Source: Candidatus Hermodarchaeota archaeon (GTDB taxonomy: Archaea > Asgardarchaeota > Heimdallarchaeia > Hodarchaeales > Hodarchaeaceae). From it: 32,000 bases of DNA. Below are positions 10,273-30,664 of this stretch, one piece after another (position 1 is the first letter of the stretch; each line of letters begins with the position of its first letter). A program made the position numbers and the translations under genes. The notes under the pieces are model-generated. The model made no database searches. It saw nothing but the letters and a program-made list of their open reading frames with translations, and was not told the DNA's origin. The DNA lies in the NCBI GenBank assembly GCA_048886185.1, contig JBHLKY010000013.1, positions 30,001-62,000 on the forward strand, in the 5' to 3' direction.

Positions 10273-11541
10273 ATGGAGTTAAAACAACCAGATAGTGCGC
10301 GTAATTCAACTACTGCCAAACCTAGTTTTATGGTTGACTTTGCTAATGCTTCTCTTTCAACAATATTTTCAATTTTGTTGTGGATCCTATTCTTCCAGTA
10401 CTATCCAGTATTGGGAAGCATTATCCCGCTTTTCTTTGGTATCTCTGTTGGAACTCTAGTTGGGACAGTGATAATAATTTTCTTCACTTATTCGATCCTT
10501 GTCCGGTGGTTTGAAATCTGGGCATATCAAATCGCTTCGTGGCGTTATCCCATCCCATACATGAACTATCGTACAAAGTGTCCATTTCTTCAGCGACGAT
10601 ATCTTACCTTTTCCTGCAGAGCTGAACAAATCGCTCCCTTTGATATCCCAGCCTTTGAGAAATGTCACAAATCATTAATGTGGGAAGCATGTTGGCCTGA
10701 GCGAATTCCTTCAATATTACAAGTGTATGATGAGGCGCCTCCAAATGTAAAGCAGCAGTATTCTTTTATTCTTGCAGCAATGAAAGAAATCGCTTCACCT
10801 GCAGCAGACAAAATGTATGAAGCTCTAACTTCTGAAACCTTAGAAATCCAGGCAAGAGTATCTGCAGGATATGCATTAGAAGAAATGAAAAACGAGAGAG
10901 GAATTGAACCATTAATTTCAATGCTTGGACAATTCGATCAACGTACAAACCAAATGATCCAAGCAATTTTAGTCCGTTATAAAGATATGGCGATGCCCTA
11001 TCTAATTAGTGCAATTCAGAATTGTGAGGGCGATATGCAGTGTGGGACAATCGTTGAAATATTAGGGAAGATAAAACATGATGATAGTGTTGCTACGATA
11101 GAAAATTTATTAACAAACGAAGAAACAGGGGAAGTTACGAGGTTACAATCAATTTATGCATTACAAGAAGTTGGGAGTGAGAAAGCAATGAAGGCTCTTG
11201 TTTCATATTTTAAATCCGCGCCTGCAGAGGAGCATGATATTATTAAAGATGTGTTATTGAATCAAAAATTGATAAGCTTCCCATTATTGATAGAGCTCTT
11301 ATCAGATCCAGAAACTCCAGAAGATTACTATACACGTATTGGTGATATTCTTGCAGATGTTGATGCAATAACATATGATAGATTTTTCACAAAACTCGGT
11401 GAATTAAAAGGATTGGATACCGTTCACAAATTAGCAACAATCTTAAAGGAAAACACTCCAGAAGAAGAAGAATTTCAAAGATTACATGAAGTACTTTCAA
11501 AGCATCAAACTTCTATCCAATCTGAAAATTCAATGGACTGA
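10273..11541 (+). CDS. Membrane-anchored HEAT (PBS-lyase-type) repeat protein with a Cys-rich linker
   Basis: Two hydrophobic segments at about aa 26-46 and 50-76, then CX11CX15CX8C, then HEAT-like repeats (ARVSAGYALEEM..ERGIEPLISML; IVEILGKIKHDDSVATIENLL; TRLQSIYALQEVGSEKAMKALVSYF). Confidence 0.8.
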   Translation: MELKQPDSARNSTTAKPSFMVDFANASLSTIFSILLWILFFQYYPVLGSIIPLFFGISVGTLVGTVIIIFFTYSILVRWFEIWAYQIASWRYPIPYMNYRTKCPFLQRRYLTFSCRAEQIAPFDIPAFEKCHKSLMWEACWPERIPSILQVYDEAPPNVKQQYSFILAAMKEIASPAADKMYEALTSETLEIQARVSAGYALEEMKNERGIEPLISMLGQFDQRTNQMIQAILVRYKDMAMPYLISAIQNCEGDMQCGTIVEILGKIKHDDSVATIENLLTNEETGEVTRLQSIYALQEVGSEKAMKALVSYFKSAPAEEHDIIKDVLLNQKLISFPLLIELLSDPETPEDYYTRIGDILADVDAITYDRFFTKLGELKGLDTVHKLATILKENTPEEEEFQRLHEVLSKHQTSIQSENSMD

Positions 11542-25901: not shown

Positions 25902-26711
25902 TCAATAATAATCTGGTTGTCTATGTTGTAAGGAAGGAAGAATAGATCGAACTTGAAATAAAACGGCAGGATCGAGTCGTGCTGTGACAACTTCCTCTTC
26001 TTCAGTCCCCTCAACAAGAATATCTCCCCCAGGATCGTATATTACAGAATGCCCGAAATATTCGAAGTTAAGATCATTCCCAACGCGATTTACACCACAC
26101 ACGAACAATTGGTTTTCAATTGCTCGCGCTTGGAGTAATTTAGTCCATATCTTATATTTCGGATGTGGAAATTCAGCCAAATAGAATATAAAATCTACTT
26201 TACCTTCTAATGTGATCCTACGACTAAGCTCTGGAAATCTCAGGTCATAACAAATAAGAAAACCTAAAATTCCACAGTTTGTTGGATATGAAAGATCTGA
26301 ATGAAGAAATCCTCCAATTGAAAAAATCTCTGGTTCCCTCATTGGAGGAAAAAGATGAATTTTCCTGTATTTGCCTAAAAAAACGCCTGATTCATCCATA
26401 ATTGCTGCTGTATTGTAAAATAAATCCTCTTCTTTTTCGATCCAGCTCGCGATAACTATTGCAGTATGTTGTTTAGCCATTTTTTGAAGGAATGTAGTAG
26501 TTTCCCCTCCAGGAATAATTTCTGCATGTTTCTGGACATTATCTAGATCATATCCCGTGGAAAACAGTTCTGGTAGACAAATAATATGAGGAAGATTCTG
26601 GGGAGCTTGAGAGGCTGCGTTTGAAATTAATTTTTCAGCCTTATTGAGGTTTTTAGTTTTTTTCCCAAATTCAATATCCATCTGTATGAGAGAAACTTGT
26701 GTTGTTTTCAT
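25902..26711 (-). CDS. Carbon-nitrogen hydrolase (nitrilase superfamily), omega-amidase Nit2/YafV/MtnU-like
   Basis: Catalytic triad motifs ICLPELF (E), GKYRKIHLF (K) and LICYDLRFPE (C); also RAIENQ and YFGHS. Confidence 0.92.
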   Translation of the reverse strand: MKTTQVSLIQMDIEFGKKTKNLNKAEKLISNAASQAPQNLPHIICLPELFSTGYDLDNVQKHAEIIPGGETTTFLQKMAKQHTAIVIASWIEKEEDLFYNTAAIMDESGVFLGKYRKIHLFPPMREPEIFSIGGFLHSDLSYPTNCGILGFLICYDLRFPELSRRITLEGKVDFIFYLAEFPHPKYKIWTKLLQARAIENQLFVCGVNRVGNDLNFEYFGHSVIYDPGGDILVEGTEEEEVVTARLDPAVLFQVRSILPSLQHRQPDYY

Positions 26712-26721
26712 TTAGTTAAAC

Positions 26722-27567
26722 TCATTCAGGGGTGATTTCAGAATCAGACATTACGTGGATAAGACGTTTGTTTGTGTATAAGTATACACAGAAGAAGATT
26801 ACTAAGGCTCCAATAAATGAAGCACCAACTCCTAGGATCGTATGTAAGAAGGTTTCATAAGAGGTATCTGCTTGAAACGTAAAATAAATGAAGTCCCAGA
26901 AACCATGAATAGCAATTGGAAGGATTAAATTATATTTAGTACTCTTGAAAGTATACGAAAATGTTAATCCCATAGCAAAAGCACTGAGGAAAATAGCAAA
27001 CATACTTGGTAAATTACCCCCAGGAGCTAACAATAACAGATGGAGAAGACCAAATAACGTTGCAGAGACACTGGCTGCGATAATGAACGGATATTTTGAC
27101 TCTATTATCGTTTGAAGATAACCACGAAAAAGCAGCTCTTCACCAATCCCAAAACCAAAATAAGCAATTAAAAGTGATAATATAATTCCAAAAATATCAA
27201 GAAGTCCTCCAATTGTTACAATCTCGAAAATATATTCAAGAATGATTGTCGGGATAATACCAGCAATTGTGATTGGGATACTAAGAAGAATCCATTCCCA
27301 TCCATATTTGTAATTCCAAGAAAAACCCGCAACACTCATTCTTTGACGATCGAATTGTAAAAAGATGTAAACCAAACCAACCCCAACCACTCCATTCATA
27401 GCACGGACAATATTTATCTCTAAGGTAGGGGGAAAGGGATTTCCATTATTGAAAACGGCTCGGACTATCCCTAATATAAATCCTTGAAAGCTGAAAACTA
27501 GAATCACGCAAATAGCAAAGAATAGAATAACACGGATCCATAAGTCTTGTGTTGAGTATTTTTTCAT
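26722..27567 (-). CDS. CPBP/Abi (CAAX protease type II) intramembrane metalloprotease
   Basis: GEELLFRGY, FGLLH and AIHGFWD, with multiple TM helices. Confidence 0.92.
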   Translation of the reverse strand: MKKYSTQDLWIRVILFFAICVILVFSFQGFILGIVRAVFNNGNPFPPTLEINIVRAMNGVVGVGLVYIFLQFDRQRMSVAGFSWNYKYGWEWILLSIPITIAGIIPTIILEYIFEIVTIGGLLDIFGIILSLLIAYFGFGIGEELLFRGYLQTIIESKYPFIIAASVSATLFGLLHLLLLAPGGNLPSMFAIFLSAFAMGLTFSYTFKSTKYNLILPIAIHGFWDFIYFTFQADTSYETFLHTILGVGASFIGALVIFFCVYLYTNKRLIHVMSDSEITPE

Positions 27568-27724: not shown

Positions 27725-29293
27725 GTGGTTGGTCCTCTTGTTGCATTTGCAGGTCTAACTGTGGCAGCTCTAGTTAAACAGGTTGTAGCAGATTATACAG
27801 CGAATATGGCGAAGAAAAAATTAGCAAAATCCTTTCTCATTGAAAGAATAGACACTAAATTGGAGAAAAAGCTCGGAAAGGATTTTTTAAAAGAAAAATT
27901 GAATGATGACAATATGGAGGAGGTACGTCAGGTCATCCATGAAGAATTAGCGGCCTATTCTCCTCGTAAAGACCTCGATCAACTGATCATCAATAGTGCT
28001 CAGAAATTAAGTGATGAACACGAAGAGATATTAACTAAACTGGATTCTATAGAGAATCTTCTGCAGAAAATTTCAATTCCCTTTGCATATACTATAGCTA
28101 AAGAAAGTGAGAGAGAAATTCCTGAAGAATTATTAAGTGGCCTTTTAGAAGGTAGTCTACAAGGGCAAAATTCGTCCCAGAAGGTATTATCTGAACTAAC
28201 AGATGATAAACACTTGCCAAGTGAAGTATTAAATGCACTAAAAGAGTTTGAGTTCATAAAAAGGATTCACACGGAAGGAGAAACAGAAATTTCTCGTTTA
28301 GTGAAGAAATTTGCTTACACTCAAGGAGAGATTAATAGTTTGAGTACTTTGATGGACATTTCTTCCTTATTAGTGGGTGGATCAAATGAAGAACTGGAAA
28401 ATTTAATATCTGATTTTGTTTTTAAAATGATAAACGAAGGAGTAAACACTTCTGTTATGGAAGATTCAGTAATTTCATTATGTTTCATTATACATAGGTT
28501 AGGGAAATTCGAGCTTCTATCTCAAAATGATCGTTTACTCTTGAGCTCATTCTTAAAAAAGAATGTTCAAAAGATTGAAGACCCCACTCGCATGCTAGAA
28601 GCATACTTTTTACTTTCTGTATTAGATATGGCAGCTGACATCAATACAACTTTTATTAAAGAGATTTTAAGCAGATACCAACAACAAGGGATTAGTTCTG
28701 TAAAAGAGATGTCAGGGCAATTACGTATTGATGGGAGGATTGCACGTTTTTTAAGACGGATAGGATTCCGAACTTCGAAACCAGAGGAATCATTACGAGA
28801 TATAAAACTGTTAATTCGAAAATTAGACAAAAGGAAGTTTGTAAGAAGTACTCAGCTACTGAAATACCAATTGAATCGGCTTATAACAGAGATAAATTTA
28901 ATGGCTGTTTATTTTGAGAAAAATGATCCCACAGAAGTCAATCTAGAAGAACTAATTGAATTGCTTCAGCTTTTATTTGAGATTCTTAACCGCCCAAGGG
29001 TGTTTCAATTAGATTTAGAGACACGTAAGAACGTTATTGAATTGATGGATGCTGCTTACTATCTTTATGACTTACTAGCGGTTCGAAACTCTTGGAATGT
29101 GATAAACAAGTTTCAATTAGATGTAAAATCATTGTATTCTCCTACTCTTGGAAGTTATGAAAGGGTAACAACTGATCAAGCAGCTTTCAATCGTGCTCTC
29201 ATTGACTTTTCACGAAGTAGGCTTAAGAGGATAGAACGAGATTTACCTAGTCCTCCTCGGAAAGATGCTAAACCAAGGACAAAATTGAAATAG
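27725..29293 (+). CDS. Hypothetical all-helical protein
   Basis: 522-aa ORF with a hydrophobic N-terminal helix, a short coiled coil and a Leu-rich helical remainder. No family recognised. Confidence 0.75.
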   Translation: MVGPLVAFAGLTVAALVKQVVADYTANMAKKKLAKSFLIERIDTKLEKKLGKDFLKEKLNDDNMEEVRQVIHEELAAYSPRKDLDQLIINSAQKLSDEHEEILTKLDSIENLLQKISIPFAYTIAKESEREIPEELLSGLLEGSLQGQNSSQKVLSELTDDKHLPSEVLNALKEFEFIKRIHTEGETEISRLVKKFAYTQGEINSLSTLMDISSLLVGGSNEELENLISDFVFKMINEGVNTSVMEDSVISLCFIIHRLGKFELLSQNDRLLLSSFLKKNVQKIEDPTRMLEAYFLLSVLDMAADINTTFIKEILSRYQQQGISSVKEMSGQLRIDGRIARFLRRIGFRTSKPEESLRDIKLLIRKLDKRKFVRSTQLLKYQLNRLITEINLMAVYFEKNDPTEVNLEELIELLQLLFEILNRPRVFQLDLETRKNVIELMDAAYYLYDLLAVRNSWNVINKFQLDVKSLYSPTLGSYERVTTDQAAFNRALIDFSRSRLKRIERDLPSPPRKDAKPRTKLK

Positions 29294-29320: not shown

Positions 29321-29638
29321 ACTAATCATAATCACTCATACACGATAAACAAAAGAAAAGTCTCACTTAATTCTTCTCATATTAAGCTAATGATTCTGAT
29401 AATAAAAGGGCTGAATATATAAGTAATGCAATACTCTTAAGGTTTGACCTTATTAGCAAGTAGATGGTTTGCAAACATTTTTAATCAATTTCGTGTGATT
29501 GTAGTTCCAACAGCAGTAAGCCTAAGTAATAATAGAAGAGAATTCATGACCATACTAAAAAGCATGGTTGTTTTATAAGTGCTTACCTCGAACTGATACA
29601 ACTCAATCTATGATTTCTAGGCCCAATTTGGTGTAAGT

Positions 29639-30664
29639 ATGCTCTTTGAAGGGATAATACTGACAGTAATGGCTGATTCAGGGCCAATGACTGAAATTAA
29701 TCTCTCAAAGTTAGATGATACAAGTGCAATGAAATTAAGTATCAGTTTAATGACCGCACTCGGTTTAGGAGAGAGCCAAGACCAATTAAACCAGCTTCAT
29801 GGTTCATTCCCAGTTCCAGGGCGCAAAGAATTATCCTTAGCTTATCCATTCTTAGTAGCTTCTACTACATCAGCTGATCCTCGTATTCAAGCAGCTGGAC
29901 GATATTGTACGCTTTTCCTCCTATTTTCTCGGGAGACAAAGCAGAAAGTGCTAGCAAGTTATGAAATAATTGAACAAATAATTTCAAGAACACTCAAATC
30001 GGTAACCCAGCAAGCTGACTTGACAACAGGATTTATAAAGGAGATATATACGAATATTGAAAGTGTGGTGGCAACTAGGGAAGGTACAAGCACTCCTGCA
30101 GCCATTAAACGGTCTACAGCAGATTTAGAGAGAATTAAAGTTGTACACGATCGGTCTCAAATCCTATCTGCCATTATTCGTGAAATAACTCAGATTCAGA
30201 CATCTATCCAATCATTATTAGACGAACTAATGGTTTTCACAGATACCCCTATTCTAGAGGGATCTTATTACATGCGTCCAATTATTAAAGCAGAAGATTT
30301 TATTAAAATATTACCCCAAATCTCTCGATATGAGAAAATACTTGCAAAGTTAGATGGGGAAGATAAAGAAACAGTAAGAGAGATCGTTGAACCTTCTATA
30401 CTTGTAAGAATTGGGAATCTTTTTTATTGGAAAGCACTAAGTTCTCAACAGATGTTAGAATATGAGAAAGCAATTGAGTTCTATTTACGAGCAAATCAGC
30501 TGAAAGACGACTCAATATTGTATCTTACCATTGGATCTATTTACCGAAGAATGGATCGGTCTGGTGATGCAAAAGATTGGATTGAGGGAGGATTTTCACG
30601 GATGAGAAATCGAAAGGAATCTATTCGAATTTCACGAAATATGCTCTTTGGGGATGTCCGCTAA
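29639..30664 (+). CDS. uDENN/longin-like N-terminal domain with C-terminal TPR repeats
   Basis: N-terminal EGIILTVMADSGP...LHGSFPVP...LAYPF...DPR...GRYCTLFLLF resembles the uDENN/folliculin-type longin pattern. C-terminal ILVRIGNLFY...YEKAIEFYLRANQL..DSILYLTIGSIYRRM..SGDAKDWI is TPR-like. Confidence 0.72.
   Translation: MLFEGIILTVMADSGPMTEINLSKLDDTSAMKLSISLMTALGLGESQDQLNQLHGSFPVPGRKELSLAYPFLVASTTSADPRIQAAGRYCTLFLLFSRETKQKVLASYEIIEQIISRTLKSVTQQADLTTGFIKEIYTNIESVVATREGTSTPAAIKRSTADLERIKVVHDRSQILSAIIREITQIQTSIQSLLDELMVFTDTPILEGSYYMRPIIKAEDFIKILPQISRYEKILAKLDGEDKETVREIVEPSILVRIGNLFYWKALSSQQMLEYEKAIEFYLRANQLKDDSILYLTIGSIYRRMDRSGDAKDWIEGGFSRMRNRKESIRISRNMLFGDVR

Follow-up and report, generated by a model that had tools for sequence, protein, structure and literature searches.

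The 32,000-nucleotide stretch of DNA examined here (hereafter the window; C13:30001-62000, contig JBHLKY010000013.1, from a Candidatus Hermodarchaeota archaeon genome of 4.84 Mb that is 96% complete) encodes P0001, the 341-residue product of a real, strongly conserved Hodarchaeales (Asgard) gene. The predicted product is a cytoplasmic protein of three parts, namely a longin domain bearing a glycine-proline (GP) motif, a long linker, and a tetratricopeptide repeat (TPR)-like module with a conserved tail. With moderate confidence, we read P0001 as a regulator of Rag/Arf-family small GTPases, most likely a subunit of the GTPase-activating protein (GAP) type. FLCN, GATOR1, and C9orf72-SMCR8 switch off the Rag/Arf GTPases of lysosomal nutrient signaling, and the origin of the longin-based GAP mechanism is an open question in eukaryogenesis.

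The gene runs from an ATG at 29639 to a stop codon at 30662-30664, with 341 codons in the open reading frame list, exactly the coordinates given by the original prediction, an earlier reading of this DNA made from its letters. A word-indexed search recovered 49 homologs, mostly 340-342 residues long and 61-88% identical to P0001, and also P0050, a full-length relative with 30% identity. Among GTDB representative genomes, a full-length ortholog is present as a single copy in all 21 genomes of the same genus and in both genomes of the sister family, while in the other 278 genomes of the phylum sample any match was confined to the N-terminal domain. The 23 full-length orthologs have a mean column identity of 69%. 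Pairwise ratios of nonsynonymous to synonymous divergence (dN/dS) between P0001 and its orthologs are 0.04-0.08, given where dS could be estimated and with dS above 1, at or near saturation. These comparisons indicate that P0001 is under strong purifying selection, and the homologs, their conservation, and the dN/dS values argue against a chance pattern of letters. When three regions of the protein were compared, dN was lowest in the C-terminal third and highest in the linker.

The N-terminal domain has a longin fold

We modeled the full-length protein with AlphaFold2 (mean predicted local distance difference test score, pLDDT, of 83), as well as residues 1-135 from an 18-row alignment (mean pLDDT 83, predicted TM-score, pTM, of 0.78). 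In the model, strand 5-12, the DSGP segment (13-16), strand 15-23, and helix 27-42 are followed by a low-confidence loop (43-48), an extra helix (47-54), and a strand bridge (57-58). The chain continues with strand 64-74, the DPRIQAAGR segment (80-88, containing a short helix at 81-86), and strand 88-97, and helices 98-106 and 108-119 end the longin part. This order, as assigned by DSSP, fits the β-β-α-β-β-β-α-α longin fold, and it reproduces the succession strand-DSGP-strand-helix-strand-strand-DPR..GRY-strand-helix that had been proposed beforehand.

A Foldseek search of the Protein Data Bank (PDB) placed the longin domain of a Lokiarchaeal Roadblock-Longin protein (8yqg) first, with an E-value of 1.9e-4; the next ranks (E 0.02-0.06) were occupied by chains of the SEA complex and GATOR1, TagF, DENND10, and a chain of the FLCN-FNIP2 complex. 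In the exhaustive VIA-align structural search (VIA), the longin model matched 8yqg with a Z-score of 11.5 and a root-mean-square deviation (rmsd) of 2.6 over 118 aligned residues. Behind it came C9orf72 and the Lst4 longin (both Z 8.8), chain H of the FLCN-FNIP2 complex (6nzd; Z 8.6), AP2 mu (Z 8.4), the Loki Rag C-terminal domain (Z 8.2), chain S (Npr2) of the SEA complex (Z 7.9), roadblock domains (Z 7-8), the longins of Mon1-Ccz1, BLOC-3, TRAPP, and CPLANE (Z 7-7.7), and DENND10 (Z 6.3). The nearest cluster in the ESM Atlas is Heimdallarchaeal, with 23% of its members carrying Pfam Folliculin, and the next clusters are C9orf72-like, NPR2, Avl9, SMCR8 (SMCR8_C), and FLCN; a cluster of Asgard proteins annotated as Arf/Ras matches the longin model too (TM 0.72 by query).

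As modeled, the assignment of residues 1-125 to the longin fold is secure, and the Foldseek comparison with known structures, which the original prediction had proposed as a check on this point, bears it out. The closest eukaryotic look-alikes by Foldseek, VIA, and the Atlas are FLCN, C9orf72-SMCR8, Lst4, and NPRL2/Npr2, much as had been anticipated, and the GP motif is present as well. The label uDENN, taken in the sense of the DENND Rab regulators, is a weaker fit, with DENND10 at Z 6.3 compared with 8.6-8.8 for FLCN and C9orf72, and with DENND proteins lacking the GP motif (PMC12290439). Within the longin fold, placement of the model in the FLCN class draws on rank order and on motifs, there being no large gap in Z.

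Conserved loops carry a GP motif and a candidate arginine finger

Catalytic arginine fingers are found in FLCN (R164), NPRL2 (R78), and SMCR8 (R147). In the P0001 model, two arginines lie in the loop between β4 and β5, of which R82 is the candidate finger and R88 a second possibility; D80, R82, I83, G87, and R88 of this loop are invariant in the orthologs. A survey published in 2025 on GAP complexes that contain longins reports a GP motif adjoining the arginine finger, where the loop that leads into strand 2 ends; FLCN, NPRL2, SMCR8, and C9orf72 have this motif, and FNIP2, NPRL3, adaptins, TRAPP, and DENND proteins lack it (PMC12290439). The same survey reports GP and an Arg finger in Heimdallarchaeial longins of the FLCN/SMCR8 type (PMC12290439). 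G15-P16 of P0001 lies at the exact position of the published motif (PMC12290439), at the β1-β2 turn, and D13, G15, and P16 are invariant in the orthologs. Because GP has been reported as specific to GAP longins, GAP is the favored activity for P0001.

The conservation extends beyond the orthologs. An exhaustive search with a profile of the N-terminal domain matched only 143 cluster representatives among 1.84 billion, and in two alignments of the family, with 106 and 54 members, G15, P16, G55, D80, and R82 are conserved at 90% or more; in the 54-member alignment D13, P58, and G87 also reach at least 90%, and D80 is invariant. Judging by the usual longin topology, the three conserved loops (D13-P16, H54-P58, and D80-R88) would share one end of the sheet.

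A link to the Folliculin class also appears in profile comparisons. The genome encodes a 437-residue protein on contig C6 that passes the Pfam Folliculin cut-off (27.8 versus 23.3 bits), and the family to which it belongs (profile A7, ∼430 residues) is widespread in Hodarchaeales and mostly labeled PF11704. Aligned by hhalign, the P0001 family (profile A6) and this family match at 86.8% with an E-value of 4.2e-6 over 128 columns, GP falling on GP and GLGES on GVGEP. The C6 protein (G000:C6:94274-94468, locus L038:625-1938, minus strand) carries EEHGP and the invariant ARG motif. Two further matches to Pfam Folliculin lie below threshold upstream of the window, at C13:6409-6672 and 11083-11277 (19.2 and 18.7 bits, in frames of 3793 and 1565 residues); they are probably noise, since 8 of 14 control genomes gave such matches too.

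Relatives of the longin are tied to Rag GTPases

Members of the family other than P0001 connect the longin to Rag-type GTPases by fusion and by gene order. In P0089, a metagenomic protein of 597 residues, the longin at 5-134 (E 1.8e-14) is fused to a Gtr1/RagA domain at 286-473 (E 4.6e-34). On contig C30 of the P0001 genome (G000:C30:6922-11322, locus L020), a run of genes on one strand with gaps of 10-20 nucleotides encodes a Rag of 334 residues, a degenerate Rag-like protein of 318 residues (Gtr1_RagA, E 1.6e-4), a GP-motif longin of 264 residues that is the closest paralog of P0001 in the genome (E 2.3e-18), and a Rag of 309 residues. The three Rag genes of the run, the degenerate one included, occupy C30 7592-8521, 9351-10307, and 10318-11322. 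The run also holds a 183-residue protein with no Pfam match, and genes for an MFS transporter and a fourth Rag-like protein are close by. Lastly, the gene for a 430-residue Arf/Gtr1_RagA GTPase lies ∼107 nucleotides downstream of P0050 on the same strand, an arrangement seen on three contigs, which probably represent a single lineage. The Rag fusion, the Rag operon, and the Rag-like neighbor of these longin relatives therefore make a Rag/Arf regulator role plausible for P0001.

The GTPase beside P0050 has its best match in the P0001 genome in a 410-residue HHH-Rag protein encoded on contig C12 (E 3e-52; next match 2.9e-15). This protein combines an N-terminal HHH_5 domain (Pfam E 2.7e-4), a G domain of the Gtr1/RagA type, and a C-terminal extension; it is 51-81% identical among Hodarchaeales homologs, and sources describe it as ADP-ribosylation factor-like. 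More broadly, the genome has many small GTPases, given that a Rag/Arf-type query found 16 matches, and it encodes at least five paralogs of the P0001 longin in addition to the Folliculin-positive protein. Counting the latter, longin paralogs are found on contigs C30, C11, C28, C22, C63, and C6.

The longin head is also combined with other partners. Paralogs in which a domain precedes the longin, placing it at ∼110-240, occur in this genome (L005) and in the wider family, and weaker members of the longin family carry TPR arrays (P0146) or sensor domains of the PAS, GAF, and REC types. A preprint by Liu et al. describes NPRL2-like longins fused to two-component domains amid extensive domain shuffling, along with some Asgard longin proteins that have an FLCN-like layout of longin and DENN (Liu et al. 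preprint). The modular character claimed for P0001 is thus well founded at the level of the family, the longin head having been shuffled with a Rag GTPase, TPR arrays, and PAS/REC domains.

Proposed mechanism and evidence against a GAP-type role

In the mechanism that we propose, the longin head would pair with a second longin, either another copy of itself or a paralog, through the edge of its β-sheet. The three loops D13-x-G15-P16, H54-G55..P58, and D80-x-R82..G87-R88 would then face the nucleotide pocket of the GTPase, with R82 as the candidate arginine finger if the chemistry is that of a GAP. The TPR-like module would dock P0001 on a protein or peptide and in this way set the place or time at which the head acts.

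Several observations weigh against this reading. At the level of sequence, Pfam yields no model matching the longin in P0001 or in 106 family members; Folliculin (PF11704), NPR2 (PF06218), and C9orf72-like give no match to P0001, to the 106 family members, or at this locus, and PF06218 finds no match anywhere in the genome. Sequence searches of the PDB with the ortholog profile (A2) and the family profile (A6) returned no relevant chain. At the level of structure, eukaryotic longins score Z 8-9, little above the roadblock and adaptor-sigma/mu longins (Z 7-8.4), and because of this the fold alone cannot split GAP longins from others. In the hhalign comparison of A6 with A7, the invariant Arg of the Folliculin-like family (ARG) is placed on Q84, two residues past R82, and R82 is for that reason a candidate finger only; R88 aligns with a mostly conserved Arg of that family. 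The β4-β5 loop nonetheless appears, from this alignment, to be homologous between the two families, with R82 or R88 as the candidate for the finger. Eukaryotic GAP longins, moreover, work as heterodimers and have DENN halves, and P0001 lacks such a half.

Genomic context adds to these points. No GTPase gene lies next to P0001, and among the full-length ortholog lineages whose context was examined, seven in number, only one has a GTPase neighbor. The C12-type GTPase was detected in 11 of 22 same-genus genomes (22 of ∼40 candidates per genome being scored), versus 21 of 21 for P0001. A complex prediction for P0001 (A1) with the C12 HHH-Rag protein (A5) scored 0.00, which gives no verdict and is evidence neither way.

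Some of these points would also suit an alternative that we consider unlikely, in which P0001 has no catalytic role and acts as a longin partner or scaffold, in the manner of FNIP, NPRL3, Lst4, or Ragulator/roadblock. Its TPR module would recruit proteins, and P0001, having no GAP chemistry of its own, would pair with a catalytic longin paralog or hold the GTPase in place. The model matches Lst4 and chain H of the FLCN-FNIP2 complex (6nzd) as well as it matches C9orf72, roadblock domains reach Z 7-8, R82 is off the exact column of the Folliculin-like invariant Arg, and heterodimers are possible because the genome holds at least five paralogs as well as the Folliculin-positive protein. On the other hand, the P0001 family has a nearly invariant GP motif and a nearly invariant Arg in the same loop, which speaks against this alternative.

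A TPR-like module takes the place of the DENN half

Neither Pfam nor the AlphaFold2 model shows a DENN core in P0001; the C-terminal half consists of a linker and a TPR-like module. The linker is made of two helices, 130-147 and the long 152-196, and the pLDDT drops to 62-76 near residues 150-180. Helical hairpins of TPR type follow at 218-236/243-249, 252-269/272-289, and 292-304/308-325, the first of them irregular and built from the long linker helix. In VIA, nearly all of the top rows for residues 175-341 of the full-length model are TPR domains, mostly of ∼3 repeats, at Z 9-11.4 with 100-137 residues aligned, a range of Z that is common for helical repeats. Examples are PlcR, subunits of the anaphase-promoting complex (APC), Sec72, NASP, MamA, Sti1, CHIP, LGN, and designed consensus TPRs (CTPRs), and the Hsp70/Hsp90-binding TPR domains of Sti1, CHIP, FKBP38, Cns1, and Sec72 are among the matches.

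Sequence comparisons recover part of this picture. Pfam TPR_8 matches one repeat (262-290) with an E-value of 0.0012 and 19.2 bits, under the cut-off of 25.7 bits. A profile of the module matches the designed consensus protein CTPR-rv4 at 4e-7 on the repeat WKAL..YEKAIEFY, in a profile that also includes the canonical TPRs of P0049. A look-up of residues 150-341 with a protein language model found TPR-family neighbors at 0.89, below the level at which such a result is more than a lead. Residues 175-341 are accordingly best described as a predicted TPR-like module of three hairpins, one repeat of which is recognizable from sequence. The original prediction had spoken of a helical linker followed by about two TPR-like repeats: the helical nature of this half holds up, and the count should be raised to nearly three hairpins, two of them canonical. 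Its proposal that TPRs replace the cDENN/dDENN part agrees with our results, as no DENN half is present and its position is occupied by a TPR-like module (model, CTPR profile, and VIA).

The module is mobile. It occurs without a longin in P0047, P0048, and P0049, and residues 172-325 share 68-72% identity with P0047 and P0048. P0047 (locus L047:2802-3875) consists of the module, a zinc ribbon, a coiled coil, and the OB domain of a proteasomal ATPase, while in P0048 and P0049 canonical TPRs precede the module and P0049 ends in a C-terminal zinc ribbon. A linker resembling PYPYIYYFPYPKGP is common to P0047, P0048, and P0049 and is missing in the longin-bearing form. The combination of longin and module is itself kept in the distant relatives P0050, P0053, P0055, and P0062, and partly in P0056 and P0063. 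The tail that closes P0001 (residues 326-341), where model confidence drops, is absent from the other module-bearing proteins; among the orthologs S328, L336, F337, and G338 are invariant, and E327, R330, S332, R333, N334, and D339 are conserved at 90% or more.

These properties of the module bear on a second alternative, quite unlikely in our estimation, in which P0001 is a TPR adaptor or co-chaperone that works independently of GTPases as a proteostasis or membrane-protein factor, its longin serving as a dimerization or ligand-sensing domain. In favor of this alternative, the module is the most constrained region (lowest dN), it exists without a longin and in one case alongside the proteasomal-ATPase OB domain (P0047), and its structural matches include TPR domains that bind Hsp70/Hsp90. 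Outside the protein, genes for Rce1-like and CN-hydrolase proteins recur as neighbors in this genus and beside two distant orthologs, proteasome subunit genes lie near two of the most distant orthologs, and weak longin relatives carry fused PAS, GAF, and REC domains (also Liu et al. preprint). The conserved longin residues, however, are those of the loops that face the GTPase in GAP longins, the fusion and operon links of the family are all to Rag GTPases, and the conservation of neighbors may be inherited synteny within one order. Least favored is a role as a guanine nucleotide exchange factor (GEF) or effector-type longin (DENN, Mon1-Ccz1, or TRAPP-like) for a Rab-, Arf-, or Rag-like GTPase, which we judge improbable even though longin-based regulators are mostly GEFs (PMC12290439), the Mon1-Ccz1, BLOC-3, TRAPP, and CPLANE longins reach Z 7-7.7, and the genome has many small GTPases (16 query matches), because both the top-ranking eukaryotic structures and the motif pattern belong to GAP longins and DENND10 stands at only Z 6.3.

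Comparison with known systems

P0001 shares with the published Heimdallarchaeial longins of the FLCN/SMCR8 type its clade of organisms, the longin fold, a GP before strand 2, and an Arg in the neighboring loop, and its family is linked by hhalign to the Pfam-Folliculin family of Hodarchaeales. It differs from them in having a linker and TPR-like module and no DENN half, and in scoring below every Pfam longin model. The eukaryotic proteins FLCN (with FNIP), NPRL2 (in GATOR1), and SMCR8/C9orf72 resemble it in fold (Z 7.9-8.8), in the GP motif, in the Arg of the β4-β5 loop, and in an association with Rag/Arf-type GTPases, which for P0001 exists at the level of the family. Unlike them, P0001 has no detectable sequence similarity to this group, neither a DENN nor an NPRL2 C-terminal domain, and an Arg that lies off the aligned column.

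The best structural match, with Z 11.5-12.2 and an rmsd of 2.6-3.4 over 118-137 aligned residues, is the longin of the Lokiarchaeal Roadblock-Longin protein (8yqg), which likewise comes from an Asgard archaeon and crystallized as a dimer. Identity between the two is 12-14%, with no match at the level of hidden Markov models (HMMs), and the longin of 8yqg follows a roadblock domain, whereas that of P0001 is N-terminal and precedes the TPR module. The three-repeat TPR docking domains (CTPR3, Sti1 TPR2, CHIP, Sec72, and the PlcR type) superpose on residues 175-341 over 100-137 residues at Z 9-11.4, yet in P0001 one repeat is recognizable by sequence, at a Pfam score under the cut-off, and the first hairpin is irregular. 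In contrast to the Rab GEFs of the DENND type, the longin of P0001 is not followed by cDENN/dDENN.

Asgard longins that resemble FLCN and NPRL2, their GP and Arg marks, and the shuffling of their domains are already published (PMC12290439; Liu et al. preprint). The pairing of longin with a TPR module appears to be unreported, as no account of this architecture was found in the literature searched, in which the 15 Asgard longins of PMC12290439 were left uncompared. Its description as a pre-eukaryotic domain combination was overstated, in that the longin-TPR protein is found in one archaeal order and is not a eukaryotic architecture; it looks like lineage-specific domain shuffling. Hodarchaeales have an entire family of GP-motif longins whose C-terminal modules can be exchanged for one another, and P0001 could serve to test whether archaeal GP-motif longins are GAPs and what the TPR module binds. 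Being small, single-copy, and well conserved, with a head and a docking module that can be separated, it should express easily and make a suitable test protein, although it is weaker in this respect than its paralogs in the Rag operon, as its own context points to no GTPase partner.

A further extension, to which we assign little probability, is that P0001 is an archaeal Rag/Arf GAP in which TPR docking has taken the place of the DENN half and tethers a catalytic head to a membrane-bound partner. The partner may be the 522-residue protein encoded upstream, which has a hydrophobic N-terminus, or the SPFH or Rce1-like membrane protein encoded close by. If true, such a TPR-tethered GAP would give prokaryotes an equivalent of the FLCN and GATOR1 complexes, which are tethered to membranes.

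Features of the locus and gene neighborhood

Table 1. Positions of the parts of P0001, its neighbors in the window, and the C12 GTPase. Positions are those of the window unless a contig is named.
Feature	Position	Strand	Basis or remark
Complete coding sequence of P0001, 341 residues plus stop (longin / helical linker / TPR-like module)	29639..30664	+	Open reading frame list, homologs, dN/dS
Longin domain, residues 1-125 (β1 5-12, β2 15-23, α1 27-42, β 64-74, β 88-97, α 98-119)	29639..30013	+	AlphaFold2 model, Foldseek, VIA, ESM Atlas
DSGP, residues 13-16, GP motif at β1-β2 turn	29675..29686	+	Conservation; position as in PMC12290439
DPRIQAAGR, residues 80-88, β4-β5 loop; R82 candidate arginine finger, plus R88	29876..29902	+	Conservation
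Helical linker, residues 126-200 (helix 130-147, long helix 152-196); least conserved	30014..30238	+	DSSP, dN
Mobile C-terminal module, residues 172-325	30152..30613	+	VIA, CTPR match, recurrence in other proteins
Conserved C-terminal tail, residues 326-341, KESIRISRNMLFGDVR	30614..30661	+	Ortholog conservation
TATA-box-like TTTATAA, ∼61 nucleotides before the P0001 ATG	29572..29578	+	Read from sequence
GGTG, Shine-Dalgarno-like, 6-9 nucleotides before the P0001 ATG	29630-29633	+	Read from sequence
522-residue, largely helical protein with hydrophobic N-terminal stretch MVGPLVAFAGLTVAALV	27725-29293	+	Directly upstream of P0001
CN hydrolase (269 residues) and Rce1-like CPBP membrane protease (281 residues)	25902-27567	-	Divergent from the P0001 locus
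SPFH/Band 7 protein, 430 residues	30704-31996	-	Pfam E 2e-27; convergent with P0001, ∼40 nucleotides between stops
HHH-Rag GTPase, 410 residues	G000:C12:46238-47467, locus L012:1441-2673	-	Ortholog of the GTPase beside P0050

Several database gene calls for orthologs (P0002, P0006, P0007, P0009, and P0010) are 331 residues long and cover 97% of P0001. Their probable start corresponds to M11, which we rejected for P0001; the ATG at 29639 is taken as the start because residues 1-10 make up strand 1, and their conservation reaches as far as P0050. The intergenic gap 5' of the gene measures 345 nucleotides, and the TTTATAA within it (Table 1) is merely consistent with a promoter of its own, as such words are common in DNA of 34% GC. 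The public sequencing runs that contain this stretch are sediment-metagenome DNA, with no RNA run among them.

The genes in this part of the window follow the order CN hydrolase (-), Rce1-like protease (-), 522-residue helical protein (+), P0001 (+), and SPFH/Band 7 (-). A relative with 70% identity has the same order, and in one with 61% identity the CN-hydrolase and Band 7 genes are missing. The 522-residue protein gave no lead in Pfam or the Atlas. Its gene adjoins the longin-TPR gene in those same-genus genomes in which both were located and is on a separate contig in both sister-family genomes; a homolog with 25-30% identity occurs in another Heimdallarchaeial family, in 12 of 31 genomes, although the longin-TPR gene is missing from that family. 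We therefore rejected the 522-residue protein as an obligate partner, since it is encoded on another contig in the sister family and is present where the longin-TPR gene is not, and retain it as a lead.

The CN-hydrolase and Rce1-like genes persist over longer distances. P0053 (∼30% identical; locus L041) lies directly beside both of them in the absence of the 522-residue gene, and P0055 (locus L042) lies beside a CN hydrolase, so that this association outlasts that with the 522-residue gene; it may be functional or may be inherited synteny. Genes for proteasome subunits are found near two of the most distant orthologs. The SPFH/Band 7 protein on the other side of P0001 begins with a membrane segment and ends in a long, charged coiled coil.

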